This document shows, piece by piece, positions 9,329 through 50,657 of a DNA stretch of 64,000 nt; positions within the stretch are counted from its first letter, which is position 1; each line of letters opens with the position of its first letter. The DNA is from an uncultured Bacteroidales bacterium (GTDB taxonomy: Bacteria; Bacteroidota; Bacteroidia; Bacteroidales; GCA-2748055), in contig CAWBWE010000020.1 of assembly GCA_963792395.1 (NCBI GenBank), positions 169,255 through 233,254 of the forward strand, written 5' to 3'. The translations under genes and the position numbers were made by a program. The notes beneath the pieces were generated by a model. The model did not search any database. It saw only the letters and a program-made list of their open reading frames with translations, and was not told where the DNA came from.

Positions 9329-10515
9329 TTATATGTAACTGATGGTGACTTCCTTCAGAAACTTTTCCTCCAGCATCCTGGCCATTCGTTTCACCACGGT
9401 TCTTCTGATCTCCAGGTCGATGGGAAGGTTTGGATCCTGGTGCGCAATATTTACCCTGGTCCCGATGATGAAGTGAATCTCATCACTCTGTTGTACCAGT
9501 TTCACAATCCGGTCGGCGGGACCTTTGCCCAGGGCATAGGAAGGAGAAAAATCTTTGAGTATCCGGGTTACCTTGGTGATGGTCAGTATGCCTTCGGTCA
9601 CCAGGTCAATTCCCTCCATATGTGAGACCGGTGGAAGCTCGGGATCCTCAAATACCAGGCTGTCTTCAATTTCCACACCCAGTTCACGGGCAATGATATC
9701 GGCAGTTGTGGCTCCGCAAATCACTTTTTTTCCTTTAAAAGCCCTCACGGTATTGCCCAGCTTTTTATCGTTTTCCTCTTCATAAGGCGGACCGGTAACT
9801 ATCATCAGCTTACGTGGTTTTCGAAAATAGATGCTGGCACAGCTGGTATCGTCTTTGGAACTGTAGCCATCGTTACGGTGAGCCATATTTACCATTTTCG
9901 ATGCCAGTTTGGCAGCGGAGATCTTGGGACTGTTCTGGACCAGTTTGAGGGAGTACTCCAGCATATTATCTCTTCCCCAGCCCAGGGGAAACTTGTCTGT
10001 TCCCAGACCCGACTGAGCAATGCCATCGCTGCAGAACAGGATCCTGTCCTCTTTCCTGGGTTCAAACTGGCAGGTAGCAGGATTTCCTTCCCTGATTTTT
10101 CTCGCTGTCAAGGATCAGGCTTTTCCAGCCCGGATCAAAGGGTTTGTTGTCTCTCAGGATGATGGTCTGCGGATTGTCAAACTCCAGGATGGTGATCAGA
10201 ACCGTCGTGTTCAATATCCACAATGGTAAAGGTGGAGTAGCTCATCTGTCGTTCACTGCATACCGGCAGGGTATTCATGATGATCTCGGCAATCTTCTCC
10301 ACCGCTTTATGCTCTATGGTGAAATTGACGGCCATGGTGGCGGTCAGGGTGGCAAGTACATTGGCTTTTACTCCATGTCCCATTCCATCGGAAAGCACTA
10401 CAATGGTCCGGTTCTCCTCTTTTACCTTCCGGCTGATAAATACATCTCCGCAGATCCGCTCATTGCCGTAATTGCGCTGATCGCAGGCGACCTCTATATA
10501 AAATTTACCACTCAT
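9329..10515 (-). pseudogene. PP2C/SpoIIE-family protein phosphatase (hydrogenase-sensor linked), frame-disrupted
   Basis: The N-terminal fragment reads ICGDVFISRKV...VVLSDGMGHGVKANVLA, a SpoIIE/PP2C metal-binding motif. The C-terminal fragment reads ILFCSDGIAQSG plus an extra ~150-aa domain. Two frame breaks occur near 10110-10180. The start overlaps the upstream stop (TAATG). Confidence 0.7.
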
Positions 10516-12383
10516 TACTTTTTCAGGTCCTGTCTTAGGTTGTAGGATTCGATGATGGAATTAAGCATTCTTTCAGTTTCTGATGCACCTTCTCCCAGGA
10601 TAAATCCGATTTGTTGCGCCAGGCTCAGGTTTTTGTCGATGACTTCTGTGAGTCTTTTTACCACCTCCTCTTTTTGCACTTCCGGAGCTGACATATCGCG
10701 GATCACTGCTCCCACAATCTTATCCTTTTCGATGACAAATACACTGACATTCAGGATTTTACCTTCGTGCCGGATATCCCTGTTGGTGATGGATTCATTG
10801 TGTGCCAGAACGTAGGTGAAGAGGTTGTAGAAATTGTAGGGGAGGAGGGTCTTTAAATCAGCTCCTGCAAGTCCGGGGACCACTTCGTTAATCTCCCTGG
10901 CATCTTCACCAAGCAAGGCGATAAAACTGTTCATTGGTTTGAATAATCTTCAGGTTCATGTCGCAGATGACCACCATGGAGGGTAGTTTATGCAGCATCC
11001 GCCGGACAATTTCAGAAGCTTCCCTGGCCGCATTCTTCTCCTTTTGGGCAAGTGCGTTCTGACTCTTTGAGGGCCTCCTGGGCCTGGGCCAGCTTTTCGT
11101 TGCTGATTTTGAGGGACTGAATGTGATCCTGCCGGTTCCTGGATGCATAGGTGTTGCACATTTCAGGAATGGCCAGCCCCTGTGCAATGGCGATGGCAAA
11201 GTCCGTGCAACTTGCATATCCACAGGCCCCGCAACCCACATCTGAGGGATTCTGCTGGTCCAAGTTCTTCCAGTATTTGCTTCAGATGGTTTTCTGAGGG
11301 GACGGGAAGGGATTGATCGTCTGCCTGGAAGCTGCGTTTCAGATTCAGGGAGGCAAACTCGGTCAATGCTGGCTTCCCAGGCATCGCGGTCCAGAGTCTT
11401 CAGGCGTTTTTCCACATATTTGATCAGCTGACTTCGCCTGAGGAATCTTTTACCTCCGGCACTTGTTCCCCTTCCCATGAGGAACTCTTTATAAAAGAGG
11501 TTAAAATGGTGTTCGATGGCTCCAATATTCTCTTCAAACTCTTTAATGGCATCCATCATTCCCTCACCTTCTACAGTGATTACGGGGCTTAGGTGCAGCT
11601 CTTCTTCGATTTCCGCAGCCTGTATGATTCCATTGGCCACCGGGAAAAAGGAGCCCTTATATCCAAGGGGATCATCAAAATCACTGTATTCCAGATCAGT
11701 TTCATGAATGCTGGGCCTCCGTGAAAAGCTCCCGGAGTTCTACAAAGGTGATGGCCAGGTCGATTCGACTGTCCCCTTCGAAATCGTCTGATCTCATCTT
11801 TGCTGGCAATTAAGGGGACTGATATAGACCAGGACCACTTCCTCACCTGCAATCTTCCGCACCACCATGGCCGTAGCAGCCACTGGAGGGAGAATGGGGG
11901 CCAGGTTGGGTACCAGGCCAGGGCTGTATTTTTCCACAAAGGAGACGGTCACCGGATCGTTTGACATGATATAGTATTTCCCCTTGCTCTTTTCAAAAAG
12001 CTCATTGTAGGCCCGGGCCACCAGATCCACCCCAAAGGCCACTTCATGAACATAGTCAAATCCCAGGTTCACGAAGCATCTGGACAAATTTTCTGTAATC
12101 CGTGATGTCGGGAAACTCACCTGCAATGGACGGATCCACCAGGGCAGCCACTTTCTTTCCTGCTTGTCAGGAGTTTATTCAGCTCATTTTTGGAATTACG
12201 TATCTCGATGGCCCCTGGTCCGCAAACAGCCACACAGCTTCCGCAGCCAATACATCTTTCGGGGATGATCTCTGGTTTCACCTTTTCGCTCTGTACCCTG
12301 ATGGCTTTCACCGGACAGGCCCTGACACATGCATAACAGGCGATGCAGGTTTCACTGTTTATTTTCAGGAGAGCTTCCATCAT
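10515..12383 (-). pseudogene. [FeFe]-hydrogenase-like sensory protein (2x[4Fe-4S] ferredoxin domain + degenerate H-domain + 4-Cys motif + PAS), frame-disrupted
   Basis: The N-terminus carries CIACYACVRACP and CIGCGSCVAVCP. The H-domain is a paralog of ORF 16940-18928, but the cluster cysteines are substituted (see findings). The C-terminal motif is CGACGYASCTDFAIAIAQGLAIPEMC. The PAS-like tail lies at 10515-10934. At least 5 frame breaks. Confidence 0.75.
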
Positions 12384-12391
12384 AGTTTGTT

Positions 12392-12646
12392 TTACATCTC
12401 TCCGAATTCATTTTCCAGGATCTCCAGGACATTCTCGTCACTTACCTCTTCATATACCTTTTGTCCAATTTTTAGCACCGGTCCCTCATTGCAGTCACTG
12501 AAACAGTGATTTCCTTTCAGGATAACCTCTCTTTCCAGTTGATGGTCCTTCAGGTATTTCTGAATCACCTGCAGTGTTTGTTTGTTTCCCCGGCTGAAAC
12601 AGGAGCTGCCCATGCAGATCTTAATCTCCTTTTCAAACAGTGTCAT
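12392..12646 (-). CDS. thioredoxin-like [2Fe-2S] ferredoxin (NuoE-fold, stand-alone)
   Basis: Intact 84-aa ORF. The cysteine pattern CMGSSC...CFSDC (Cx4C...Cx3C) is typical of NuoE/HydC-type 2Fe-2S domains. It is the first gene of the minus-strand sensor operon. Confidence 0.7.
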   Translation of the reverse strand: MTLFEKEIKICMGSSCFSRGNKQTLQVIQKYLKDHQLEREVILKGNHCFSDCNEGPVLKIGQKVYEEVSDENVLEILENEFGEM

Positions 12647-12759: not shown

Positions 12760-12772
12760 TGTGAATATCACA
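12760..12772. promoter_or_regulatory. perfect palindrome TGTGA-ATA-TCACA (candidate operator)
   Basis: A 5+3+5 perfect inverted repeat, located where a transcription start would be expected downstream of the -7 box. Confidence 0.3.
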
Positions 12773-12808: not shown

Positions 12809-13285
12809 ATGGATGAGCCACAGCACGAATAGAAGAGATTCTGCAGCGGTTTCCCCAGATCAAGAGGAATGCGCTGATTCCCCTGCTTCAGGCCATTCAG
12901 GATGAATTTGGATATATTTCTGAAGAAGCTATTGGCGCATCGGTGCTCATCTCTCTCTGCCCACCAGCAAGGTATACGGCCTGGCTACATTCTACAACCA
13001 GTTCACTTTTTCACCCAGAGGATTTTACCATGTGATGCTTTGTAATGGAACTTCCTGTCATATGGGAGGTTCCGGGGAATTGGTCAATGAAATCACCAAA
13101 CTGCTGGAGATCAAAGATGGAGAAACAACGCCGTGACGGACTTTTCAGCCTGGAAGTACAATCCTGTATCGGGGCCTGCGGACAATCACCGGTAATGGCG
13201 GTCAATGGGACCTATTATTCCGGGATCGACGGTAAAAGAGGTTAGGGAGATTATCAAACAATACCGGGAAGATGCAGAGAGATAG
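12809..13285 (+). pseudogene. hydC: [FeFe]-hydrogenase NuoE-like subunit (HydC), frame-disrupted
   Basis: Across frames it reads EEILQRFPQIKRNALIPLLQAIQDEFGYISEEAI...KVYGLATFYNQFTF...YHVMLCNGTSCHMGG...LFSLEVQSCIGACGQSPVMAVNG...VREIIKQYRE. This is the NuoE 2Fe-2S pattern. At least 3 frame breaks. Confidence 0.75.
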
Positions 13286-15208
13286 GGAGCTGTTACTGAA
13301 GCTGGCACAGAGTAATGGTTCTGAGCTGAATCCTGAAGAACAAGGCCTGAGGGACAAACTCAGGAAGATCCAGTGTAGACCAGGCCACTGGTCATGGTCA
13401 ACAGTTCAACTTCCGGAATTGTGGCCGGATCCCAAGCCACATGGAAAGCCATTGAACAGTATGCTTCGGATCGTTCCATAGAAATTGAACTGGCTGAAAC
13501 GGGAAGTATCGGACTGAGTTCAGAAGATCCGGTTGTTTCTGTTCAGATGCCGGGCCGTACCACGCATCTTTTTCAGCAGAATCACTGCAGAAAAGGTTCC
13601 CATCTTGCTGGATGATCTCTTTCACCAGGTGGTTCCGGATCAGATGCGTGATCGGCCAGCTCTCACAGGAAGGACAGGAGGCCTGGGCAGATGTTCCTTT
13701 CCTGGATGAGATTCCCTTTTTCGCTTTGCAGAGCCGGATGGTGATGGACGCCTGCGGAATCATCGATCCCTTTTCTCTGGAGGAATATGTGGCAGGCGGC
13801 GGATACAGGGCATTTCTGCTTACCATCCGCACCTATACCTTTCGTGAAGTTTGCGAGCTGGTGAAGAAGAGTGGTCTGAGGGGCCGGTCCGGCGGAGGTT
13901 TTCCCACGGGTGAAAAATGGAAAGCAGCCTTTGAGACTCCCTCGGATCAAAAATATCTGGTATGCAATGCCGAGGAGAGTGATCCCGGGGCCTTTATGGA
14001 TCGAACACTGATGGAGGGAAATCCATTTCAGTTGCTCGAAGGTATCTCCATTGCAGCCTATGCCATCGGGTCCAATCGGGCCTATATTTATATCCGCAGT
14101 GAATACAAGGATACCATCAGGCGTATCAACCATGCCATTAAGGAACTAAGGGAGATGGGACTCCTGGGGGATAATATCCTGGACAGTGGGTACAATCTGC
14201 AGATCTCCCTGCGTAAGGGTCCTGGAGCCTTTGTATGTGGTGAGGAAACTGCCCTGATAGCCAGCCTGGAAGGAAGAAGGGGAATGCCCGCTGCCAAGCC
14301 GCCCTATCCCTCCACTTCCGGTTACCTGGGACGTCCAACCGTGGTAAATAATGTGGAGACCCTCTCCAATTTGCCCGGGATCATCCGAAAGGGTCCGGAT
14401 TGGTTCAGAGGAATAGGGATGGATGGGTGTCCCGGGACCAAGATATTCAGTATCTCAGGCCGGGTGGCACTTTCCGGATTGGTAGAGGTACCCATGGGTA
14501 CCTCCTTTAATACCATTGTCAATGAGATTATTGGAGGGGTCAGAAAGGGCCGGGAACTGAAAGCACTACATGTGGGTGGCCCATCGGGCTGCATGGTTCC
14601 GGTGGAACTGATGGATCTACCCGTGACTTATGAGACTCTGAAGGAAAAAGGACTGGTCATGGGTTCGGGGGGAGTTCTGGTGATGGACGATAAGACCTGC
14701 GTGGTAAATACGGTCAGGTACTTTATGGAGTATTTGAATAAGCAGAGTTGCGGTAAGTGTATCCCTTGCAGGGAAGGAACAAGGCGAATGGCGGAGATCC
14801 TGGCCAGTATTACCCGAAAACCGGTGGATGAGGAGGGGACATACCACTCTGGAAAGGTTCAAAGGAGTGATGCAACTGGAAAGCCTGGCTGAGGTGATGA
14901 AGGATACTTCGCTTTGCGGTCTTGGACAGAATGCCCCTAATCCGGTAGTAAGCACCCTGAAGTATTTCAGGCACGAATACGAGGAGCATATTTTCGACAG
15001 ACGATGTCCCTCCAACACCTGCACGGAATTACGTACCTGGTTCATTGATGTGGACCTGTGCACCGGGTGCTCCATCTGCGCCAAAAGGTGTCCGGCCGAG
15101 GCCATCATTGGTACTGCCAGACACCCCTATTTTATTGTGCAGGAGAAGTGTATTGGGTGCGGGATCTGTTTTGATGTATGCAAGTTTTCGGCCGTCTACT
15201 ATAAATAG
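13272..15208 (+). pseudogene. hydB: [FeFe]-hydrogenase NuoF-like flavoprotein subunit (HydB), frame-disrupted
   Basis: The main fragment 13612-14892 has the FMN/NADH motifs GLRGRSGGGFPTGEKW, YLVCNAEESDPGAF and GAFVCGEETALIASLEG, plus the N3 cluster motif [11 protein letters not shown]. The C-terminal fragment 14828-15208 carries two 4Fe-4S motifs ([23 protein letters not shown]). At least 3 frame breaks. Confidence 0.85.
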
Positions 15209-15211
15209 GGA

Positions 15212-16939
15212 ATGATGGGAATTAAGCTGGAAGTTAACGGGACAAATATTGAAGCGGAGAAGGGGGAGACCATACTCTCCGCCCTGAATCGCCATGGCAT
15301 GCATGTGCCTACCATCTGCAGCATGAAAGACCTGACTCCCTCCGGAGCCTGCCGCATGTGTGTGGTGGAGGTGGAAGGAAAGGAAAACCTGGTCCCATCC
15401 TGCTCCTTTCCCGTGGAAGGTCCCTTGAAGATTAAAACCCACTCTCCCAGGGTTCTGAGGGCACGAAAGACCAATGTGGAGTTGTTACTGTCCAATCATC
15501 CAGACGATTGCCTCTACTGTGAGCGGAACGGTTCCTGCGAATTGCAATCGCTTTCCGAGGATTTGAATATCAGGGAGCGACGGATACCGGGAAAGCGAAC
15601 CCTTCATAAAATTGATAAATCAAGTCCGGCCATTATCCGGGATCCTTCCAAATGCATATTCTGTGGAAGATGTGTCAGGATCTGCGAGGAGATAATGAGT
15701 ACCTCTACTCTGGATTTTGCTCACCGGGGAAATGAATTGAGGATATCCACCACCCTGGGCAAGCCCTTGAATTATTCCAATTGCACTTCCTGCGGTCAGT
15801 GCCTGATCGCCTGTCCCACGGGGGCCCTGATCGAACATGTTCAATTTCCGGAGCTTGAAAGCCATATTCATGCCCCCGGGAAACTGGTGGTGGCCCAGTA
15901 CAGTCCGGCTGTGGCTATTTCCGTGGCTGAAAAGCTAGGGTATAAACCCGGAACCGATATGAGTGGCATCATCAACACCGTGTTGCACCGCTATGGATTC
16001 GACAAGGTTTTTGAAAGCTCTTTTGGAGCCGATCTTTTGATTCTGGAACAGGCCGAGATATACAAACAGGTAAGGAGCAGACAACAGGACTTTCCCCTGA
16101 TTACCAGCTCCTGTCCGGCCTGGATACATTATGCAGAACAGTATTATCCGGAACTGCTGCCTTTCCTTTCTCCCCTGAAGTCACCCCAGCAGATTAACGG
16201 GGCACTGATCAGGGAGTGGTATGCAGGAAACGGAAAGCAGGCGGATAAAGAGATTGTCTCTGTGCTGATTACTTCCTGCACGGCTGCCAAGGCAGAGGCC
16301 AGACGAATGGAGATGACCCGGGCAGGACTTCCCGTGATTGACCTTGTGCTGACTACCCGTGAGCTGCTGAGAATGATTAAACTCAGCGGACTGGAGCTGG
16401 ATCAGCTGGAGCCGGAACTTCCTGATGCCCCCTTCTGCTCTTTTGGTTCTGCCGGAAAACTGTCGGGAATTGCGGGTGGAGAAGTAGAAGCCACCATTCG
16501 CACCCTTTATGCGCAATATGCAGGGACAGAGATGCCGCCTTCGAAACTGCACAGGTTCCGGGTGCACAAGTCCTACCGGGAAATGAGCGTTAAAGCCGGC
16601 TCCTCGGAGATCAGGATAGGGGCAGTCAATGGACTGGCTAATGTGCATGCCGTGATTGAGGAGCTTAAGGCGGGAAAAAAGAAGCTGGATATTCTGGAGG
16701 TGATGGCCTGCCCGGAAGGATGTATCAACGGGGGAGGCCAACCAATCCCTGTGGATGATAAATTGCTTCGTGCCCGTTCTAAGGCCATCTACGACCTGGA
16801 TAACGGGAGCGAACTGCATACCGCTCATCAAAATCAGCCTGTTCAGGATATTTACAGGGATTTACTGGGGGAACCCGGAGGTCCCTTGAGCAGGAAGCTG
16901 CTCTATACCACCTTTTTTAAGCGGGAGGTTTTGCTATAA
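15212..16939 (+). CDS. hydA: [FeFe]-hydrogenase large subunit (HydA-like, M3 architecture) with non-canonical L1/L2 motifs
   Basis: Intact 575-aa ORF. It has an N-terminal 2Fe-2S domain (CSMKDLTPSGACRMCVVEV) and ferredoxin-type clusters (CIFCGRCVRIC, CTSCGQCLIACP). The H-domain L3 motif is EVMACPEGCINGGGQP. L1 reads TSSCPAW and L2 reads TSCTAAKAE. Confidence 0.9.
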   Translation: MMGIKLEVNGTNIEAEKGETILSALNRHGMHVPTICSMKDLTPSGACRMCVVEVEGKENLVPSCSFPVEGPLKIKTHSPRVLRARKTNVELLLSNHPDDCLYCERNGSCELQSLSEDLNIRERRIPGKRTLHKIDKSSPAIIRDPSKCIFCGRCVRICEEIMSTSTLDFAHRGNELRISTTLGKPLNYSNCTSCGQCLIACPTGALIEHVQFPELESHIHAPGKLVVAQYSPAVAISVAEKLGYKPGTDMSGIINTVLHRYGFDKVFESSFGADLLILEQAEIYKQVRSRQQDFPLITSSCPAWIHYAEQYYPELLPFLSPLKSPQQINGALIREWYAGNGKQADKEIVSVLITSCTAAKAEARRMEMTRAGLPVIDLVLTTRELLRMIKLSGLELDQLEPELPDAPFCSFGSAGKLSGIAGGEVEATIRTLYAQYAGTEMPPSKLHRFRVHKSYREMSVKAGSSEIRIGAVNGLANVHAVIEELKAGKKKLDILEVMACPEGCINGGGQPIPVDDKLLRARSKAIYDLDNGSELHTAHQNQPVQDIYRDLLGEPGGPLSRKLLYTTFFKREVLL

Positions 16940-18928
16940 ATGGAACAGTTACAGAAAAAGAGGGGCCTGGTTTACACGGTCAAGGATTTGTGCCGGGTAT
17001 GTTATACCTGCGTCAGGGAGTGCCCGGTGAAAGCTATCCGGATTGTGGACGGTCAGGCCGAGGTGGTGGTGGAAAGATGCATAGCTTGCGGAAACTGCAC
17101 CATCGTTTGTTCCCAGGGAGCAAAGGTATATGAGCGCTCCGTCGACCGGGTGCATGCGCTCCTGCAGTTCGAAAAAGAGGTGATTGCCATTGTTGCACCA
17201 AGTTACGTTGCTGAGTTTGAAGAGATTCCGGATATGGCTCTTTTTGCCGGGATGTTGAAAAAACTGGGATTTAGTCAGCTCTTTGAGGTGGGTATGGGAG
17301 CCGATCTGGTGGCAGAAGCCTATGAAAAACTGATCAACGGATCTCCGGGCAAAGGATTCATCAATTCCGATTGTCCGGCCATTGTCTCCTATGTTCAAAA
17401 ATACCATCCCGATCTGATTGGTACACTCACCCCGGTGGTTTCCCCTATGGTAGCAACGGTAAGGTATATCAGAGAGGTAGAGAAGAGCCAGGCAAAGGTT
17501 GTTTTTATCGGACCCTGTGTGGCCAAAAAAGAGGAATCCCATGAAGTGGATGAGGTGATTACTTTTGCAGAATTGCGAACCATGTTCACCTCCATACGGA
17601 TCAGGGCTTCCAATGTGGAAGCTGCGGCCTTCTCCCCGCCACTGGCCAAAAAAGGGGCAGGTTTTCCCGTAAGCAGAGGCTTGCTTCAGTCTATGAACCT
17701 GGAGGGAAATCATGTGGACCAACGGGTCATAGTAGCTGAAGGCCGGGTTCATTTTCAGGAGGCCATCCGGGAATATGCTTCGGGCAGGCTGGGTTCCAAA
17801 CAACTTGAATTGCTCTGTTGTGAAGGGTGTATCATGGGCCCGGGAACCAGTCCCGGTGGGAAGAAATTTGTACGCAGAAGCCTGGTGCTTAATCACCTGT
17901 ACGAAAGAATTGACCAGAACCATGGAGAGAGTGAGGCCATAAGGCCGGAGGGCATTCATCTGGATCTTAGCCGCTCCTTTAGAAGGGATGATCAACGCCT
18001 GCAGGATTCATCGGAGGATGAGATCCAAAAGGTGCTTCAGCAAATGGGAAAATTTTCCCAACAGGACCACCTGGATTGTGGCGCATGCGGGTATGATACC
18101 TGCCTGAGCCATGCGCGGGCCATTACACAGGGACTTGCCGAGGTGGAGATGTGCCTCCCTTATTCCATAGACACCCTGCACCGGACCATACACAAGCTGG
18201 ACGATTCCAAACACAAGTTGCTCTCCGTGGAACAGGCTCTCAGGCAGAGTGAAAAGCTGGCACATATGGGTCAGCTATCCGCGGGGATCGCTCATGAATT
18301 AAATAATCCCCTGGGTGTGGTGATTATGTACAGCAACCTGCTGCTGGAAGAGGTGGGAAATGACCGGCAGTTGAAGGAAGACCTGGAATTAATTGTGGAG
18401 CAGGCCGGGCGATGCAAATCCATTGTGGGCGGATTACTTAATTTTGCCAGGAAGAACCAGGTAAGGTACAGTACCATGGATCTGGAAGAGTTGATGAGGA
18501 AAAGTACAGGTTCTCTGATTTTTCCGGAAAACATCCGCTATACCCTGAACAACCAGCTTTCCAATCCTTTTGCCGAAATGGACGGGGAACAAATGGTCCA
18601 GGTCATCAGCAATCTCTTAAAAAATGCAATGGAAGCCATGCCCGGGGGTGGGGCCCTGACCGTAAGCCTCACTGACAGCCAAGACTGGGTGAATATCAGG
18701 ATCCAGGATGAAGGCAGCGGGATCTCCCCCGAAGAGCTTGAAAAGGTATTTGAACCCTTTTATACGACCAAGGGAATTGGAAAGGGGACCGGACTCGGAT
18801 TGGCGACTACCTATGGGATCGTCAAGATGCACCGGGGACAGATCGATGTGAACTCCAATACCAATCCTGAAAAAGGAGCCACGGGAACCGAATTCATGGT
18901 GAAGCTTCCGCGAAAGCGTGCCACCTAA
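16940..18928 (+). CDS. sensory [FeFe]-hydrogenase-like domain fused to a histidine kinase (HydS-HK)
   Basis: Intact 662-aa ORF. The N-terminus has 2x[4Fe-4S] motifs (CRVCYTCVRECP, CIACGNCTIVC). The H-domain has L1 NSDCPAIV, L2 GPCVAKKEE and L3 LLCCEGCIMGPG. A 4-Cys motif CGACGYDTCLSHARAITQGLAEVEMC follows. HisKA reads SAGIAHELNNPL. HATPase_c reads NLLKNAMEAM...GTGLGLATTYGIV. Confidence 0.85.
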   Translation: MEQLQKKRGLVYTVKDLCRVCYTCVRECPVKAIRIVDGQAEVVVERCIACGNCTIVCSQGAKVYERSVDRVHALLQFEKEVIAIVAPSYVAEFEEIPDMALFAGMLKKLGFSQLFEVGMGADLVAEAYEKLINGSPGKGFINSDCPAIVSYVQKYHPDLIGTLTPVVSPMVATVRYIREVEKSQAKVVFIGPCVAKKEESHEVDEVITFAELRTMFTSIRIRASNVEAAAFSPPLAKKGAGFPVSRGLLQSMNLEGNHVDQRVIVAEGRVHFQEAIREYASGRLGSKQLELLCCEGCIMGPGTSPGGKKFVRRSLVLNHLYERIDQNHGESEAIRPEGIHLDLSRSFRRDDQRLQDSSEDEIQKVLQQMGKFSQQDHLDCGACGYDTCLSHARAITQGLAEVEMCLPYSIDTLHRTIHKLDDSKHKLLSVEQALRQSEKLAHMGQLSAGIAHELNNPLGVVIMYSNLLLEEVGNDRQLKEDLELIVEQAGRCKSIVGGLLNFARKNQVRYSTMDLEELMRKSTGSLIFPENIRYTLNNQLSNPFAEMDGEQMVQVISNLLKNAMEAMPGGGALTVSLTDSQDWVNIRIQDEGSGISPEELEKVFEPFYTTKGIGKGTGLGLATTYGIVKMHRGQIDVNSNTNPEKGATGTEFMVKLPRKRAT

Positions 18929-18945
18929 TTAATTAAAAAGAAGTA

Positions 18946-19341
18946 ATGAGCGAGATAAAAAAGAAGACCATTTTGCTGGCTGACGATGATCCGGATTTGA
19001 TATTCCAGGTGAAACATCACCTGGAGCGCTGGGGATATGAGGTGGTTGCTGTGGAGTCGCGCGCGGATGCCGAACGATACCTGGAGAGTGGATGCCCCGA
19101 CCTGGCCATCCTCGATCTGATGATGGAGGAGGAGGACAGCGGATTTATTCTCTCCTACCGGATAAAGAAATGCCGGCCCGGGGTACCGGTGATTATCTCT
19201 ACGGCCGTGACTGCCGAGCGGGGTATCTCTTTTGATATAAACAGTCCGGGGAGCAAGTCCTGGATCAGAGCGGACCACTACCTGGAGAAGGGCTACAGAA
19301 TGGAAGAATTGAAATTACTTGTCAAAAAATACCTCGATTAA
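18946..19341 (+). CDS. single-domain response regulator (receiver only)
   Basis: Intact 131-aa ORF with ILLADDDPD...DLAILDLMM...VIISTA receiver motifs and no output domain. Confidence 0.85.
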   Translation: MSEIKKKTILLADDDPDLIFQVKHHLERWGYEVVAVESRADAERYLESGCPDLAILDLMMEEEDSGFILSYRIKKCRPGVPVIISTAVTAERGISFDINSPGSKSWIRADHYLEKGYRMEELKLLVKKYLD

Positions 19342-19345
19342 TCCT

Positions 19346-20470
19346 ATGGAGACTTTATCTGTTCTGGTGGTTGACGATGAGCCGGGAATCCGCTCGGGTG
19401 TGAAAAGGATCCTGGAAGGGCACCACGTGAGTTTCCCCTTCATGGATGAAGATTATCAATTTATATGCAGGGAGGCAGCCAGCGGGGAAGAAGCACTGCT
19501 TATGCTGGAAGAATCCCCGCCCGAGATACTCCTGCTGGATAATAAGCTGCCCGGGATGGACGGGATGGAGGTGCTGGAGATCATCAAGCAGAAGAATATG
19601 GATATCATGGTGGCAATGATCACCTCCTATGCTTCGCTGGAGATTGCGGCCAAAGCTACCGATGACGGGGCCCGGGATTTTATTCCGAAGCCATTTACTC
19701 CGGCAGAGCTGAAGTCCAGCATTGATCTGATCACCAAGCAGTATTTCCTCAAAAAGATCACCCGGACCATGAAGGAGGAGGGAAAGAAGATTCGTTACCA
19801 GTTTCTTTCCGTTTTGAGCCATGAGCTCAAATCACCCCTCAATGCCCTGGAGGGTTACCTGCAGATGATGAAGGAACGTGAACTTGGAGAGGACTTGAAG
19901 GAGTATGATGCGCTTATTGATCGCTCACTTCAGCGTGTGGAGGGGATGCGCTCGCTGATCATGGACCTGCTTGATTTTACCAAGATCAGGCTGGAGAGAA
20001 AAGAGGAGAAAATAGAGCGGGTGGACCTCATGGAACGGGCACAGCTGGCCCTGGCCACCATTAAACCCCTGGCCCATATGCGGAATGTTACGATTAGCTT
20101 TTCGGGAGAGGCGATTTATTACGACGCAGATCCATCGGACCTGGACATCATGTTTAACAATCTGCTCTCCAATGCGGTCAAATATAACCGTGACGGAGGA
20201 GAAGTGGAGCTGGTGCTCCGACAGAAGGAGCAGATGCTTGAAATACTCGTGAAGGATACGGGGATCGGGATGAGCGAAGAGGAGGTTTCCCAGTTATTTA
20301 AAGAGTTTGTCCGCATTAAAAACAGCCGGACCAGGGGAATTACCGGTTCGGGCCTGGGCCTCTCCATTGTAAGTAAAATAGCTGAGCTTTACGGGGGACA
20401 CATTGATGTGAACAGCGTCCCCGAAAAGGGGAGCGAATTCAGCGTAATTCTTCCTCTTCACGGAGACTGA
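19346..20470 (+). CDS. hybrid receiver-histidine kinase (REC + HisKA + HATPase_c)
   Basis: The ATG at 19346 gives METLSVLVVDDEPGIR...LLLDNKLPGMDG...FIPKPF (REC), then FLSVLSHELKSPLN (H-box) and GSGLGLSIVSKIAELYGG (G2 box). The ORF-track start at 19319 overlaps the upstream gene. Confidence 0.85.
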   Translation: METLSVLVVDDEPGIRSGVKRILEGHHVSFPFMDEDYQFICREAASGEEALLMLEESPPEILLLDNKLPGMDGMEVLEIIKQKNMDIMVAMITSYASLEIAAKATDDGARDFIPKPFTPAELKSSIDLITKQYFLKKITRTMKEEGKKIRYQFLSVLSHELKSPLNALEGYLQMMKERELGEDLKEYDALIDRSLQRVEGMRSLIMDLLDFTKIRLERKEEKIERVDLMERAQLALATIKPLAHMRNVTISFSGEAIYYDADPSDLDIMFNNLLSNAVKYNRDGGEVELVLRQKEQMLEILVKDTGIGMSEEEVSQLFKEFVRIKNSRTRGITGSGLGLSIVSKIAELYGGHIDVNSVPEKGSEFSVILPLHGD

Positions 20471-20500
20471 CGGGTATCAACAGAATTGTTGATCTGAAAC

Positions 20501-20516
20501 TGTGATTTAATTAACA
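20501..20516. promoter_or_regulatory. candidate Rex operator TGTGA-N6-TAACA upstream of rex
   Basis: TGTGATTTAATTAACA has half-sites spaced as in the Rex consensus TTGTGAA-N4-TTCACAA (Clostridial variant TTGTTAA-N4-TTAACAA). One half matches each variant. It lies 38 nt upstream of the rex ATG. The adjacent TATTTTG resembles a -7 box but is one T short. Confidence 0.35.
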
Positions 20517-20553
20517 ATATTTTGTAGTATTGTATCAGTCCAAATTGATAGCT

Positions 20554-21177
20554 ATGACCTTGCCGGAGCGAACGGTTGAACGTTTGAGTGAATACCGCAG
20601 ATCCCTGCTTCAGTGCCTGGAGGAGGGAAAGACCCACATATTTTCACATGAACTGGCTGATCTCCATCATAATACTGCGGTTCAGGTTCGCAGGGATATT
20701 ATGTTTATCGGGTATACGAGCATGCAGCGAAAAGGCTATGATGTCAGAGAACTGGTGGATGTTATCGGGGAGATTCTGGATTCCGAGAGCGGGCTTAATG
20801 TGGCCGTGATCGGTGTGGGGAATCTGGGCCGCGCAGTGACCACCTACTTTGTAGGAAAGCGTTCCAAACTCAATATACTGGCTACTTTCGATGTGGATAC
20901 CAATAAAATTGACCGGGTGATTTCCGGGGTAAAATGCTATCCGCTAAGCAGGCTGAAAGAAGTGGTTCAGGAACAGAACATCTCCATTGCCATCATGACG
21001 GTACCAGCCGATTCTGCTACCGAAGTGACCGCAAACCTGGTGGATGCCGGGATTAAGGGTTTGATGAATTTCACGACCATACCCCTGAATGTACCCCCGG
21101 AAGTATACCTGGATGAATATGATATGATTACCTCCCTGGAGAAAGTAGCCTATTTCGTGAAGAGTCCCCAAAAATAG
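20554..21177 (+). CDS. rex: redox-sensing transcriptional repressor Rex
   Basis: The N-terminus reads ERTVERLSEYRRSL (winged-helix). The Rossmann motif is NVAVIGVGNLGRAV. The length is typical of Rex. The start is placed at the ATG at 20554; the ORF track uses TTG at 20530. Confidence 0.85.
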   Translation: MTLPERTVERLSEYRRSLLQCLEEGKTHIFSHELADLHHNTAVQVRRDIMFIGYTSMQRKGYDVRELVDVIGEILDSESGLNVAVIGVGNLGRAVTTYFVGKRSKLNILATFDVDTNKIDRVISGVKCYPLSRLKEVVQEQNISIAIMTVPADSATEVTANLVDAGIKGLMNFTTIPLNVPPEVYLDEYDMITSLEKVAYFVKSPQK

Positions 21178-22062
21178 ATGCAGGTACATCAGTCCATGGA
21201 GCATTTGCCGGAGATTCCGTCGCCGGTTGTGACCGTAGGTTCCTTCGATGGGGTACATGTGGGTCACCGGGCAATTATCCGCCGACTAAAGAACCTGGCC
21301 CGGGAAGTGAATGGATCCTCTGTACTGATCACCTTTTTCCCACACCCTCGTAAAGTGCTGTATCCGGATGCTGCAGGGAAGGATCTGAACTTGATTAATT
21401 CCCAATCTGAAAAGATCGAGCTTCTGGCTGAAGCGGGCCTGGATCACCTGATTATCCTGGAGTTTACCCTTGATTTTGCAAAGACCAGTTCCGCTGACTT
21501 TGTAGAACATTACCTGGTAGGGAAGCTTCATGCCCATACCATTGTGGTGGGATTTAACCACTATTTTGGCCACAACAGGGAAGGGAGCTTCAGCTCTCTT
21601 TACAAGGCCAGGGATCTTTATGGATTTCAGGTGGAAGAAATTCCTCAGCAAGAGATCCAGAATGAAACCGTTAGCAGCACCAAAATCCGAAGAGCCCTGA
21701 AGGAGGGAAACATTCAGCGGGCCAATGCTTACCTGGAGCATCACTATATGATCCGGGCAAAAATGGAACGGCTTCCGGACCAGGGGGACTTGCCTCTGCA
21801 GCCCTGTTTTTGGATTCCTGTAAGCGATCCTTTGAAAGCGCTTCCGCCAGCAGGGGACTATGCAGCTTCATTTTCACACGAGGATCACTACGAGAAGGCC
21901 CTGGTGTGTATCAATGAAAAACAAATACTTCTTTATCCACTTGAGATTCAATTACCCGGCCTGGACGAGGAGGGCCTTATCCGTTTTCATAAACGATTGG
22001 AAGCCCGGGGAGGATCCAGCCTTCCAAAGCAGCTGGATGCTGTCAGGGAACTCATTTATTAG
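21178..22062 (+). CDS. ribF: RibF-like FAD synthetase with divergent riboflavin-kinase domain
   Basis: The N-terminus VVTVGSFDGVHVGHRAIIRRL...VLITFFPHP is an FMN adenylyltransferase domain. I cannot find the GxxLGFPTAN kinase motif in the C-terminal ~120 aa. There is no gap to rex. Confidence 0.75.
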   Translation: MQVHQSMEHLPEIPSPVVTVGSFDGVHVGHRAIIRRLKNLAREVNGSSVLITFFPHPRKVLYPDAAGKDLNLINSQSEKIELLAEAGLDHLIILEFTLDFAKTSSADFVEHYLVGKLHAHTIVVGFNHYFGHNREGSFSSLYKARDLYGFQVEEIPQQEIQNETVSSTKIRRALKEGNIQRANAYLEHHYMIRAKMERLPDQGDLPLQPCFWIPVSDPLKALPPAGDYAASFSHEDHYEKALVCINEKQILLYPLEIQLPGLDEEGLIRFHKRLEARGGSSLPKQLDAVRELIY

Positions 22063-36090: not shown

Positions 36091-36729
36091 ATGAAAAACT
36101 TACGGATGCTTCTTGCCCTGTGTTTCCTTTATGGATTCCTGCAGGGTGGCTTTGCCCAGATTGCCGGGACCGCTCACGATTTCTCAAGCGAATCATGGGC
36201 TCCCACCTCTAACCGGGGATGTGGCGTTTGTCACACCACTCACCAATCAATCCCCGTCACCAGTGCGCCTCTGTGGCACCATGAAACCACGGTAGTAGCA
36301 GGCTACACGCTCTATGATTCGCCCACCTTCGACGGGGGCTCCACCATCACCGATCCCGGGGCAAGCTCCCGACTGTGCCTCAGCTGCCATGATGGAACGG
36401 TCGCGCTGGAAAACTTCGGAGGTGTTAGCTCGGGAACCAATTACATTGATCCCTCAGCCCGGATCGGGGGGGTGGCCGGGAATGATATGAGTACAGAACA
36501 CCCGATTTCCTTCGACTATACAGATGCGCTGGCTACCGGTGATGGCGGACTTTTCCCGCCCACCACCACCAACAGCGGTCTGGGGAGTACCATCGATAGT
36601 GATATGCTTTTCGGTGGTAAAATGGAGTGTGCCTCCTGTCACGATGTACATAACAGGTATGGTGTGATGCATCTGCTGAAAATGTCCAATGTGAACAGTG
36701 AACTCTGTCTCACCTGTCACAATAAGTAA
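36091..36729 (+). CDS. secreted tetrahaem c-type cytochrome
   Basis: Signal peptide MKNLRMLLALCFLYGFLQGGFAQ. Four CXXCH motifs (CGVCH, CLSCH, CASCH, CLTCH). It is a paralog of the N-terminal third of ORF 42331-44016. Confidence 0.85.
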   Translation: MKNLRMLLALCFLYGFLQGGFAQIAGTAHDFSSESWAPTSNRGCGVCHTTHQSIPVTSAPLWHHETTVVAGYTLYDSPTFDGGSTITDPGASSRLCLSCHDGTVALENFGGVSSGTNYIDPSARIGGVAGNDMSTEHPISFDYTDALATGDGGLFPPTTTNSGLGSTIDSDMLFGGKMECASCHDVHNRYGVMHLLKMSNVNSELCLTCHNK

Positions 36730-36768
36730 ACGATCTGGTTCCTGCTGACTTAAAACAGTTCATCACCC

Positions 36769-37852
36769 ATGAACAAAGCTATCCCTTTTGCATTTTACGG
36801 AATACTCCTGTTTGCCTGTCTGTTTAGTGCCTGTACACCCCACGTGGCCAGGGCCCCGGTTCATGAATCCCTGGTGATCTTTCCTCCGCCCCCGGATACT
36901 ACCCGGGTACAATATCTGACCCATTTCAGCACTTCCGACGATCTGGAAGGAGATCAGGGAGCGTTTCACCGTTTTCTTTTTGGGGGAGGAATCCCCTCTT
37001 ACTATGATCAAACCCTATGGGATCACTGCCCATAAAGAGAAGATATATATCTGCGATACCGGATTGGGCGGCCTGGAGGTGCTGGACCTGCAAAATGGAA
37101 GCTTTGAATACTTTATCCCGGGAGGAAAAGGTCAGCTGAAACTGCCCATCAACAGCTGTGTGGATGATCGGGGATATCTTTATGTGGCCGATGCCAACCG
37201 GGGACAGATAGTCGTGTTTGACAAGGAACTGAAATATGTTCATGCCTTCGGGGAGGCTGAAGGATTCAGACCCACCGATGTAAGTGTTTACCAGGACAGG
37301 ATCTGGGTGGCCAATGTTCAGGATCACCAGATTTACATCTTTGGTACCGGTGATTATAAGCTGATCGGGCGTTGGCCGGATCTGGGCGCCGGGGAAGAGG
37401 GCTTTATCCGGCAATCCACGAATATTGCCATCCAGAACGACAGGCTTTATGTATCGGATTTCGGAGATTTTAATGTGAAAAGCTATACCCTGGATGGGGA
37501 ATTCCTGAAAGTGATCGGAGGGTATGGGAACGGACCCGGACAATTCACCAGGCCCAAAGGCCTGGCCCTGGACAGGGAGGAGAATCTCTATGTGGTGGAT
37601 GCGGCATTTGAAAATGTGCAGCTGTTCAATCCGGCGGGGGAACTGTTGATGCATTTCGGGGGCTCCTACGAGGGAGCAGGGGCCATGTGGCTCCCGGCAG
37701 CGGTTGAAATCTCTTATGAGAACCTCTCTTTTTTCGAACCTTATGTGGACGACAGTTTTATCCTGAAATATCTGATCTACGTCACCAACCAGTATGGCCC
37801 GGCAAAAGTCAACGTTTACGGATTCGTGGAAGAGAACGAAAGACCAAAATAA
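36769..37852 (+). pseudogene. NHL-repeat beta-propeller lipoprotein, one frameshift
   Basis: The lipobox is LLFACLFSAC. NHL-type repeats are present (YVADANRGQIVVFD, IWVANVQDHQIYIF, LYVSDFGDFNVKSY, LYVVDAAFENVQLF). The frame changes between 36980 and 37035. Confidence 0.75.
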
Positions 37853-37860
37853 AGCTGTAT

Positions 37861-38433
37861 ATGAAACATCCCGGACAAATATGCATATGGGTTCTTCTGG
37901 GGATGGGGATGATCCTCTTAAGTCAATGCTCCCCCCGTACAGGGAAAAGTCTATTGCATATTTTCTTTGACGGGGTCCCGGAGACAGACAGCAGTTCTTT
38001 GGCGATCACAGACCCGGGGAACCTAGCGCCCGATTCAGGGAATATTGCAGCCTGGCAAATGGCCGGCAATGTAGCGGCAGGAGTTGTGCACTACCCCTAT
38101 GGAGAGCGGGAATGTGCCTCCTGTCATAATGAGCGCTCTCTGGGGAGCATGCTGGAGCCCCAACCGGGGCTCTGCTACCTCTGTCATGTGGATCTGTCCG
38201 GACAATACAACTACCTGCATGGGCCGGTTGCCGGAGGATATTGCACCGCCTGTCACGATCCGCACAGCTCCGAAAATGAACATTTGTTGAAGTATACCGG
38301 GGAAGCACTCTGTTTCTATTGCCATAGGGCAAAGAGTATCCTGGGCAACGAGATGCATGAAGGGATCGAAGGGATGCTCTGTTCCGATTGCCACAATCCC
38401 CACGGGGGGGAGGACAAATATATTTTTCAATAG
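37861..38433 (+). CDS. pentahaem c-type cytochrome lipoprotein (c3/c7-like)
   Basis: The lipobox is MILLSQC. Five CXXCH motifs (CASCH, CYLCH, CTACH, CFYCH, CSDCH) sit in H.P....C..CH.PH contexts typical of c7/c3 modules. Confidence 0.85.
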   Translation: MKHPGQICIWVLLGMGMILLSQCSPRTGKSLLHIFFDGVPETDSSSLAITDPGNLAPDSGNIAAWQMAGNVAAGVVHYPYGERECASCHNERSLGSMLEPQPGLCYLCHVDLSGQYNYLHGPVAGGYCTACHDPHSSENEHLLKYTGEALCFYCHRAKSILGNEMHEGIEGMLCSDCHNPHGGEDKYIFQ

Positions 38434-38451
38434 TCAGCCTATTAGGAAGTT

Positions 38452-40413: not shown

Positions 40414-40423
40414 ACGAGCGCTT

Positions 40424-41302
40424 ATGATGCAATGGCTGTTTATAGATTTACTGATCGTTCTGGCGCTACCCATGAGCAGATCAACCCAGATTGAATCCTC
40501 GAGGGAGCAGCCGCAACTGGAGTGTAAGGAGTGTCATTCGGACCTGGTGGAGCACGGGGTGATGCACTATCCGGCCGAAGATGCCTGTGATAATTGTCAC
40601 GAATCAACCGGTGTTTCCCATCCTTCTGAAGATAGTGCGGGTTTTCGATTGATGGACCAGATCCCGGCCTTATGCTTTTACTGCCACGAAGAGAGTGAGC
40701 AGCAGAGCCATGCTCATGAACCACTTAAGAAGGGCAATTGTCTGGGCTGTCACGATGCCCACGGCTCATCGGAGCCTTCCCTCCTTTTATCCCCGGATCC
40801 CGGCCTCTGCCTCTCTTGTCACAACCGGGTATACCGGGGTGATTCAACAAAAACAGATAACATTGGTCGCCTGGTAAAGGGGAGGATGGTGGCCCATTCG
40901 GCCATTCCGGGTGGAGGCTGCATGTCTTGCCACCAGGCCCATGGCTCGGAATTCAGGGCCCTGCTGGTGAGTCCTTATCCTGAAGAAGACTATTTGCCGG
41001 CGGTCTCAGATAATTTCGAGCTCTGTTTTCTCTGTCACGACACCGATCTTCTGGAGGCGGAGGAGACCGAATGGGGAACCGGGTTCAGGAGTGGGAATCG
41101 GAACCTGCACCAGCTTCATATTAATGGGAATAAAGGGCGAAACTGCCGTATGTGTCACAACATCCATGGATCACCGTTGCCCTTTCTGGTGGAGGAAGTG
41201 GTGGGCTTTGGATCCTGGGAGATGCGAATGAATTTTGTTCCGGAAGAGCAGGGGGGAACCTGTCTTCCAGGGTGTCACGGGAAACAAGCTTACAGAAGAT
41301 AA
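40424..41302 (+). CDS. multihaem c-type cytochrome (8 CXXCH + 1 CX3CH)
   Basis: It has an N-terminal hydrophobic signal. The haem motifs are CKECH, CDNCH, CFYCH, CLGCH, CLSCH, CMSCH, CFLCH and CRMCH, plus a C-terminal CLPGCH. Confidence 0.85.
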   Translation: MMQWLFIDLLIVLALPMSRSTQIESSREQPQLECKECHSDLVEHGVMHYPAEDACDNCHESTGVSHPSEDSAGFRLMDQIPALCFYCHEESEQQSHAHEPLKKGNCLGCHDAHGSSEPSLLLSPDPGLCLSCHNRVYRGDSTKTDNIGRLVKGRMVAHSAIPGGGCMSCHQAHGSEFRALLVSPYPEEDYLPAVSDNFELCFLCHDTDLLEAEETEWGTGFRSGNRNLHQLHINGNKGRNCRMCHNIHGSPLPFLVEEVVGFGSWEMRMNFVPEEQGGTCLPGCHGKQAYRR

Positions 41303-41313
41303 GGGGAAAGCTC

Positions 41314-50620: not shown

Positions 50621-50657
50621 TTTTACTATATTGTGCCCCCTTATAAATTGTAACTCT

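Follow-up and report, generated by a model that had tools for sequence, protein, structure and literature searches.

A HydABC-type [FeFe]-hydrogenase subunit of Bacteroidales without the relay cysteine and with a candidate glutamate-based proton route

The accepted proton-coupled mechanism of [FeFe]-hydrogenases has a relay cysteine as its cornerstone. In the catalytic members of the family this residue is held to be strictly conserved (PMC3485046). Here we consider a stretch of 64,000 nucleotides from an uncultured Bacteroidales bacterium (GenBank assembly GCA_963792395.1, contig CAWBWE010000020.1, positions 169,255 to 233,254 of the forward strand; hereafter the window), in which the gene hydA encodes a hydrogenase subunit with serine in place of this cysteine. 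The question raised by the locus is whether the subunit is a product of faulty sequence, a protein that no longer catalyses, or an enzyme that moves its protons in another way. On balance we favour the last of these, namely that HydA would be the H-cluster subunit of a HydABC-type complex (NuoE/NuoF-linked, Bfu family) with a rebuilt, glutamate-based proton route and probably an altered rate or bias.

The hydrogenase subunit and its remodelled residues

HydA is a multidomain protein in which Pfam recognises, in order; Fer2_4 (2Fe-2S), NADH-G_4Fe-4S_3 (NuoG-type 4Fe-4S), Fer4_Nqo3 (2x[4Fe-4S]), Fe_hyd_lg_C and Fe_hyd_SSU, with Fe_hyd_lg_C (PF02906) scoring 240.1 bits against a cut-off of 22.1 and covering profile positions 2-245 of 245. 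CpI and the HydA subunits of HydABC complexes have this same M3 architecture, and over its full length HydA aligns with the corresponding chains of the solved complexes of T. kivui (8a6t), A. woodii (7q4v) and T. maritima (7p5h), at E-values from 2.7e-140 (T. kivui HydA1, the top match among solved structures) to 1.6e-107. The locus shares with these Group A3 (Bfu) systems the M3 HydA, the gene order hydC-hydB-hydA, the canonical L3, the four H-cluster cysteines and a HydB with a flavin mononucleotide/nicotinamide adenine dinucleotide (FMN/NAD) domain and C-terminal 2x[4Fe-4S]. However, where the solved complexes have C299, E279, E282, M353, P354, K358, F417 and V423 (CpI numbering, used unless the query is named), the query has S, Q, I, T, S, A, S and E. 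Pfam finds no signalling domain in HydA, and the fused PAS-, kinase- or phosphatase-linked module of Group C is thus missing. Of the Group D traits, the M2e architecture, Leu at 497, loss of S319 and a placement by Group C are not found, HydA being M3 with M497 and S319 kept; what it does possess is a Group-D-like set of relay residues, E424, E496 and S300 (CpI 423, 495 and 299), with the relay cysteine absent.

Residue equivalences were taken from an alignment to CpI and to the T. kivui, A. woodii and T. maritima HydA, and from HMMER alignments to solved structures, and the residues were surveyed over these proteins, 150 representatives of 50%-identity clusters and 80 genomic loci. The clade of the query has 131 members in the combined alignment and was compared with a set of 79 canonical sequences. 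The gene and its motifs, with residues in query numbering unless a change is written out, are as follows:

hydA, 15212-16939 (+): 575-amino acid M3-type [FeFe]-hydrogenase subunit, the longest open reading frame of its neighbourhood
Q280-A-E-I283, 16049-16060 (+): E279 to Gln and E282 to Ile, the loss of two canonical pathway carboxylates (ungapped HMMER alignment to CpI)
L1 TSSCPAW, 16103-16123 (+): S300 is TCC (16109-16111) in place of the relay Cys; C301 is TGT, the ligand being retained
L2 TSCTAAKAE, 16271-16297 (+): M353T, P354S and K358A, with C355, K359 and E361 kept
S418...A421-G-G-E424, 16463-16483 (+): F417 to Ser, T420 to Ala and V423 to Glu, the E424 codon being 16481-16483
L3 EVMACPEGCINGGGQP, 16697-16744 (+): canonical, with E495, M497, C499 and C503 invariant in the clade

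In terms of CpI, S300 corresponds to the relay C299, C301 to the ligand C300, T354/S355 to M353/P354, A359 to K358, K360 to K359 and E362 to E361. The L1 TSCCPxW and L2 MPCxxKxxE signatures of canonical enzymes are therefore absent from HydA, while L3 is canonical. The Group A pathway C299-E279-S319-E282-R286 reads S, Q, S, I and V in the query, and its entrance S320/H569 reads P and Y. An initial annotation, made from the letters of the window, had placed the variant L1 and L2, the canonical L3 and the TCC codon correctly on re-reading of the translation, and the alignment bears out its statements that the first Cys of TSCCP is the relay beside the azadithiolate (adt) amine and that Thr-Ser takes the place of Met-Pro in L2. 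Its suggestion of an altered proton path is strongly reinforced by the loss of E279, E282, S320, H565 and H569 and by the fixed Glu423. Its description of the L2 lysine as displaced by one position holds for the look of the sequence but not as a real displacement, since K358 has become Ala and the second Lys of the KK pair (K359) is kept. An indel that shifts the lysine was ruled out, as the L2 segment has the same length as that of CpI, which means that K358 is substituted and K359 retained. In model enzymes K358 anchors the distal cyanide ligand and is required for [2Fe] incorporation.

The HMMER alignments differ around E279 and E282, being ungapped to CpI and having one gap to T. kivui, and Q279 is stable in both. 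A shift of the alignment that would rescue E282 was also ruled out, because the clade has mostly Arg or Ala at 281 and Ile, Val or Leu at 282, so that no register gives Glu. The role of S320, H565 and H569 as pathway entrance follows a recent description (bioRxiv 10.64898/2026.09.22.753672). Position by position, the clade reads:

C299, relay Cys: Ser, 131/131
E279, pathway carboxylate: Gln, 131/131
E282, pathway carboxylate: Ile/Val/Leu, 131/131
S319, pathway: kept
R286, pathway: kept in 79%; Val in the query
S320, pathway entrance: Pro, 129/131
H565, pathway entrance: mostly Arg/Gln/Lys; Arg in the query
H569, pathway entrance: mostly Tyr; Tyr in the query
A230, pocket: Ser/Thr
I268, pocket: Ser/Thr
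M353, pocket: Ser/Thr; Thr in the query
P354, pocket: Ser, 128/131
K358, distal-cyanide anchor: Ala, 128/131
K359: Lys, 131/131
F417, pocket: Thr/Cys/Ser; Ser in the query
T420, pocket: Ala
V423, pocket: Glu, 131/131 (Val in 79/79 canonical sequences)

The H-cluster ligands C300, C355, C499 and C503 (query C301, C356, C500 and C504) are invariant in all 131 members, as are M497, P324/Q325, E361, E495 and the GGGQP loop. Only 10 positions of the H-domain are fixed differently from the canonical set, and six of them, 279, 299, 353, 354, 358 and 423, are residues with a known place in the active site or proton pathway. The changes thus fall mainly in the cofactor pocket and along the proton pathway, a pattern that argues for a remodelled site and not for decay. 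Residue by residue, the clade has given up the greater part of the Group A proton pathway (C299S, E279Q, E282I/V/L, S320P, H565R and H569Y).

Position 417 lies beside the open coordination site and is Cys in 49 of the 131 clade members (~37%); in these a thiol could matter for proton transfer or O2 protection. Presumably F417 and V423 act as a gate, although a literature search on the F290/V296 gas channel gave no support for this.

The serine variant is almost certainly a conserved, selected natural state of its lineage. The best 120 homologues in a collection of 5.8 billion proteins, 70-93% identical to HydA, all carry TSSCP[AS]W or an equivalent L1 together with a variant L2, and where they have source labels these are metagenome-assembled genomes (MAGs) of Bacteroidales or Bacteroidota. 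A scan of GTDB species genomes gave 13 species with orthologues 67-95% identical, all of them MAGs labelled Bacteroidales, Bacteroidota or similar. In pairwise comparisons of the window gene with ten orthologues the ratio of nonsynonymous to synonymous substitution rates (dN/dS) is 0.06-0.14, indicating strong purifying selection, and it is this together with the tight conservation that marks the variant as a selected state.

A reader of the window might nevertheless suspect that a poor long-read assembly has produced the Ser codon and the odd L2 through wrong base calls or misassembly. The window shares 92.2% nucleotide identity over 21.8 kb with a related locus (L007, contig CAVVVN010000008.1) and differs from it by 145 indels, of which 101 are single-base insertions outside homopolymers, and these break hydB, hydC, the upstream HydS paralogue, the SpoIIE phosphatase, lon (at least five pieces), the ADP-forming acyl-CoA synthetase and the aminotransferase. 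The fragments keep high amino acid identity and the genes are intact in relatives, so the single-nucleotide indels are most likely uncorrected long-read errors, unevenly corrected, and not signs of pseudogenes. Within hydA itself there is a compensated deletion and insertion at 16231 and 16239 (8 nt apart), possibly a short erroneous excursion of the frame, which alters residues 341-344 (NRKAED in L007, NGKQAD here) away from all motifs. Against this suspicion, the indels crowd into 5-14 kb and 22-27 kb and, save for that pair, spare 15-22 kb, with zero uncompensated ones in 15000-22000; the errors elsewhere in the window are indels and not substitutions; and the same residues stand in 120/120 homologues and 131/131 clade members, which come from independent projects and sequencing platforms. 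A sequencing error at Ser300, which the initial annotation had singled out for a check of the base call, is rejected on this conservation, and the chance that the motifs are artefacts is vanishingly small. The orthologues, whose inspection it had also called for, show that Ser299 is the norm of a sizeable clade and not a peculiarity of one locus.

A candidate glutamate relay and the activity to be expected

Where would protons go in such a protein? A possible answer comes from TamHydS, a Group D enzyme of Thermoanaerobacter mathranii, in which the canonical pathway is absent and an alternative one starts at Glu252, modelled 3.4 A from the adt amine, with E289 of the ExM/LxC motif as its next residue (PMC10407848). 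Exchange of Glu252 (E252V or E252D) removes >99.99% of H2 oxidation and 80-90% of H2 evolution, and Group A enzymes have valine at this position (PMC10407848). We derived the equivalences from the published primers and text of that study, decoded as SGG-E252-AF and DFF-E289-GLAC; on this basis E252 corresponds to CpI V423 ('GGV') and E289 to CpI E495. The query reads AGG-E424-VEA and LE496-VMAC, matching both glutamates, and position 423 is located at the top of the pocket of the active site.

TamHydS has lost C299 and E279 and has Ser for M353 (PMC11803613), so that the two proteins have in common the 'GGE' glutamate, the ExM/LxC glutamate, the absence of the relay Cys and of E279, and a hydroxyl residue for M353. 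However, TamHydS has Ala at 299 where the query has Ser, Leu at 497 where the query has Met, and has lost S319 while keeping E282. It is moreover an M2e-type enzyme that has a C-terminal cluster domain and no N-terminal 2Fe-2S/NuoG-like module, and it does not form part of a HydABC complex. As the query is nearest to A3 enzymes by sequence, the resemblance is most likely convergent, judging from trees that did not contain the TamHydS sequence, and HydA appears to combine an A3-type scaffold with a Group-D-like relay.

We propose that Glu424 would replace the relay Cys as proton relay and hand protons on to Glu496, with Ser300 only hydrogen-bonding to the adt amine and positioning it. That Glu424 specifically plays this part is plausible by analogy with TamHydS, although we place it slightly short of an even chance. 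HydA most likely still binds the H-cluster and feeds electrons to HydB and HydC, since it retains the four H-cluster cysteines and M497 along with an intact L3 loop and intact electron-transfer domains.

The effect of the serine alone has been measured in engineered enzymes, and the strong impairment stated in the initial annotation is documented (PMC9563086; PMC3485046). In the variants CpI C299S, CaI C298S, CpII C169S and CrHydA1 C169S only 0.002-1.3% of H2 evolution is left, in CpI and CpII 14-16% of H2 uptake is left, and in every case the balance moves toward H2 oxidation (PMC9563086). These variants carry the same exchange as the query, yet their pathway is otherwise unaltered and they lack Glu423, whereas the query clade has a co-adapted set of at least 10 changes.

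Such data bear on whether HydA might after all be an ordinary, fast hydrogenase that uses the canonical route, with Ser300 as a Grotthuss-type relay like S319 and with the behaviour of Group A3 HydABC. This may be consistent with the retention of S319 and of R286 (in 79% of the clade), and with A. woodii HydA1, which with TSCSP in L1 shows full activity and a normal spectrum of the H-cluster (PMC10021017), so that deviations in L1 need not matter. But the partners of residue 299 have gone too (E279Q and E282I/V/L in 131/131, S320P in 129/131, H565 and H569 mostly replaced), exchange of E279 or C299 alone cripples CpI (PMC9563086; PMC10407848), and Ser at 299 left the four model enzymes with the traces of H2 evolution given above. 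We therefore regard this reading as very improbable.

A further guide to the phenotype is CpII, which is biased toward uptake and differs from CpI in the pocket by A230S, I268T and M353T (PMC5506873). The query has the corresponding changes (A230S, I268(T/S), M353T), although CpII, unlike the query, keeps the relay Cys. TamHydS, for its part, is slow (~0.1 umol H2/min/mg), has a low Michaelis constant for H2 and an overpotential in both directions, and is putatively sensory (PMC10407848). Taken together, the CpII-type pocket changes, the bias of Cys-to-Ser variants and the slowness of TamHydS lead us to expect a slower and/or oxidation-biased enzyme, and by this analogy the likely phenotype is a lower turnover and/or a shift to H2 oxidation or higher H2 affinity, and not a dead protein.

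Several points weigh against a rebuilt and working glutamate route. All that is said here on the activity of the clade is inferred from sequence, and the distance between Glu424 and the adt amine is carried over from a homology model of TamHydS. Of the outer part of the TamHydS route (S249 and D265), S249 has Ala as its equivalent in the query, and the route beyond Glu496 is unmatched. After K358A, cofactor binding might be poor, with the neighbouring invariant K359 as a possible substitute. The best-scoring NCBIfam families both fall below their cut-offs, TIGR02512 (group A) with 351.2 against 405.95 and NF040763 (NADH-dependent, group A6) with 612.2 against 765, which is consistent with the generic NCBI names of the relatives, merely '(2Fe-2S)-binding protein' or 'ferredoxin'. 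The genomic context (aminotransferase, ferredoxin, 2-oxoacid:ferredoxin oxidoreductase, ADP-forming acyl-CoA synthetase and Rex) fits fermentative H2 release and is awkward for a strong uptake bias, although the multihaem cytochromes elsewhere in the window point the other way. Finally, if the indels of hydB and hydC in the window are real, the complex may not form in this organism.

Some of these points could also be taken to mean that HydA is non-catalytic, or serves only in sensing or electron transfer, either because [2Fe] is poorly bound after K358A or because the H-cluster is very slow and HydS-like, which would make it a redox module or H2 sensor in a NuoEF-type complex. K358, C299, E279 and E282 are all replaced, and single engineered changes at those sites almost abolish activity (PMC9563086; PMC3485046); the pocket resembles that of the slow, putatively sensory Group D enzyme; the NCBIfam scores fall short of the group A thresholds (612 < 765; 351 < 405.95); and the same locus holds degenerate hydrogenase paralogues. 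However, the cluster cysteines, M497, P324/Q325, E361, E495 and GGGQP are invariant over 131 sequences at a dN/dS of ~0.1, and the replaced positions do not drift but are fixed to S, Q, A and E, and fixation to specific residues points to a new function at the site. In addition, HydA has no signalling domain, and the locus already has a dedicated sensor with output domains (HydS-HK), of a type that usually regulates a catalytic enzyme. We thus consider a non-catalytic HydA unlikely and retain the preference for a catalytic subunit with a rebuilt proton route.

Natural variants, known systems and significance

The same operon, with a kinase-fused hydrogenase paralogue right after hydA, is found in many other Bacteroidales whose HydA is ~50% identical to the query and has the canonical TSCCP/MPCxxKK motifs. 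In this family E279 is often replaced (by Q, L, T, M, V or S), even where C299 is kept, and position 299 varies to an unusual degree, being Cys, Ser, Arg (loci L020 and L072) or Asp (L026, L032, L034, L064, L039 and L042). The Asp299 proteins (T[SG]DCP, encoded near position 10890 of each locus) otherwise keep MPCxxKK and are the natural counterpart of the engineered C298D, the only relay substitution that kept high activity (PMC3485046). The ligand Cys300 is itself commonly replaced by Ser (TSCSP, as at loci L065, L066, L073, L076, L080 and L081), in 20 of the 79 canonical sequences, A. woodii HydA1 (7q4v) among them.

By neighbour joining, the group with Glu423 and Ser/Thr353 (18 taxa, the query and the HydA of 17 loci), all of whose members are without C299, is monophyletic in 99/100 bootstraps. 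It is nested within Bacteroidales HydA that have the canonical TSCCP/MPCxxKK motifs and share its synteny. L039 and L042 combine Glu423 with Asp299 outside this clade, which suggests convergence. A tentative reading of these data, which we hold to be possible without giving it preference, is that a bifurcating-type HydABC lineage has independently evolved a glutamate relay otherwise known only from the 'sensory' enzymes of Group D, as one branch of a wider radiation of E279-less Bacteroidales enzymes exploring at least three relay solutions; Cys, Asp299, and Ser/Arg299 with Glu423.

The nearest relatives with the canonical Cys, L017 and L027, have L2 MPCTAMKFE, with K358 changed to Met and K359 kept, and the loss of K358 is thus wider than the Ser299 clade. 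Among the representatives there is also a predicted protein of 4122 amino acids (P0121) with seven separate stretches matching HydA, which is either a multi-hydrogenase fusion or an artefact of gene calling or assembly.

With regard to known systems, the operon resembles the sub-type V BfuABC with BfuT of Hydrogenedentota, Calditrichota and Bacteroidota, in which bfuC-bfuB-bfuA are followed by a hydrogenase-like 'T' gene fused to a histidine kinase and, in Bacteroidota, preceded by another (PMC11406978). The P1-P3 motifs are reported to vary among Bfu sub-types, with biochemical validation lacking (PMC11406978); however, the variation described there is at the fifth P1 position, TSC[C/S]P, and concerns the ligand Cys, while TSSCP, the L2 change, Glu423 and a link to proton transfer are not described there. 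The L1 variant of A. woodii, TSCSP, likewise alters the ligand Cys, whereas that of the query alters the relay Cys; Ser301 serves as cubane ligand in A. woodii HydA1, an otherwise normal enzyme (PMC10021017). A literature search for TSCSP gave one paper with any connection to hydrogenases and a search for TSSCP gave nothing relevant, though a mention in subscription literature is possible. The TSSCP/Glu423 clade is therefore not described in the accessible literature, while its operon type is already known. Being neither described nor shown to be active, it is not the norm of a known, active subgroup, the circumstance that would have undone the initial annotation.

The locus further resembles those with a HydS-type Group C protein next to HydABC, as in T. 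maritima HydS, in that two paralogues with kinase and PP2C-phosphatase partners flank hydABC; R. albus HydS we take to be a further example. HydA itself, unlike Group C HydS, is without a PAS, kinase or phosphatase domain and has a full electron-transfer F-domain.

What makes the clade of wider interest is that it is large and under purifying selection, and joins a NuoEF-linked, otherwise catalytic scaffold to the replacement of the relay Cys and most of the pathway and to the gain of a Group D glutamate. If the Glu424 enzyme is competent, the 'strictly conserved' Cys relay would be replaceable in nature, and the family would already contain a set of enzymes with which to work out how rate, bias and CO/O2 sensitivity depend on the proton pathway. 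As a natural Group A/Group D hybrid it could serve to test the determinants of turnover, bias, overpotential and inhibitor tolerance, with the Bacteroidales variants that have Asp299, or Cys299 without E279, as built-in controls. There is also a consequence for surveys, at least one of which threw out sequences without canonical motifs (PMC6085437); such filters, or the cut-offs of curated hidden Markov models, would drop or misname these genes, so that the H2 metabolism of sediment and soil Bacteroidales may be under-counted or misjudged.

Neighbouring genes of the window

The genes around hydA are as follows:

SpoIIE/PP2C phosphatase, 9329-10515 (-): frameshifted
Degenerate HydS-like paralogue (PP2C-linked), ~10521-12383 (-): shattered by frameshifts; intact copy at L007:5321-7231 (-)
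Thioredoxin-like 2Fe-2S protein, 12392-12646 (-): part of the divergent unit
Divergent upstream unit as a whole, 9329-12646 (-): from open reading frame translations, tblastn and Pfam on the intact L007 copies
hydC, 12817-13282 (+): NuoE-like, thioredoxin-type 2Fe-2S; fragmented by frameshifts, with pieces in three frames by tblastn with the HydC of L001
hydB, 13272-15208 (+): NuoF-like, with FMN/NAD site and C-terminal 2x[4Fe-4S]; split over three frames, with Pfam matches on two fragments
hydS-HK, sensor paralogue, 16940-18928 (+): Fer4, H-domain, FeS, HisKA and HATPase_c (Pfam); L1 NSDCPAIV, L2 IGPCVAKKEE
Response regulator, 18946-19341 (+): Pfam
Hybrid histidine kinase, 19319-20470 (+): Pfam
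Rex-type redox repressor, 20530-21177 (+): Pfam; the order response regulator-kinase-rex is the same in L001

The link to NuoE and NuoF claimed in the initial annotation is confirmed, in that hydC and hydB lie directly upstream of hydA, although both are frameshifted in the window. In L001 and L007 both genes are intact (HydC of 158-163 amino acids; HydB of 643 in L001 and 655 in L007), as is the whole order hydC-hydB-hydA-hydS(HK)-response regulator-kinase-rex. A tblastn search with the HydB of L001 finds its pieces in frames 3, 2, 1 and 2 of the window, and one break is an inserted A (1 nt) at 14841. The N-terminal ~170 residues of the L007 HydB (L007:8030-9994) are free of Cys while the C-terminal 2x[4Fe-4S] is present; the N-terminal [2Fe-2S] that the solved HydABC complexes have in HydB is thus probably absent here.

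The initial annotation also saw a graded divergence of the H-site among the three hydrogenase-like proteins, and the gradient turns out to be steeper than it claimed. HydS-HK, whose start codon begins at the base after the hydA stop (a position conserved in L001 and most related loci), retains the four Cys and the KK pair and has Asp at relay position 299. In the upstream paralogue C300 has become Asp, C355 has become Leu and L3 is devoid of Cys (IMSNDPVTV and YISPL in the window fragments; motif strings MSNDPVTV and ISPLIASKDE), with the same losses in the intact L007 copy. It therefore cannot bind an H-cluster, though its ferredoxin domain at the N-terminus and its 'FeS' motif at the C-terminus are preserved.

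Judging from gene order, Rex and the neighbouring H2-sensor kinase probably govern the expression of hydABC. An inverted repeat, TGTGAATATCACA (12760-12772), lies between hydC and the divergent gene, and a weak Rex-box-like site, CTGTGATTTAATTAACAA (20500-20517), just upstream of rex; a scan of the window for Rex operators gave a number of matches no better than chance. No maturase was found by Pfam among 20 open reading frames at 26-64 kb of the window, a scan that did not extend to a search for HydEFG in whole genomes.

Further along the window, at 36091-44016 (+), 50631-53714 (+) and 48149-50620 (+), are multihaem c-type cytochromes (doubled CXXCH, MtrC/MtrF-like) and an NHL beta-propeller protein, with a ResB-CcsA-type cytochrome-c assembly fusion and FeoAB nearby. 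Lying close to the hydrogenase genes, this cluster represents respiratory or extracellular-electron-transfer equipment of a kind unusual in Bacteroidales, and its multihaem cytochromes could take electrons from H2.

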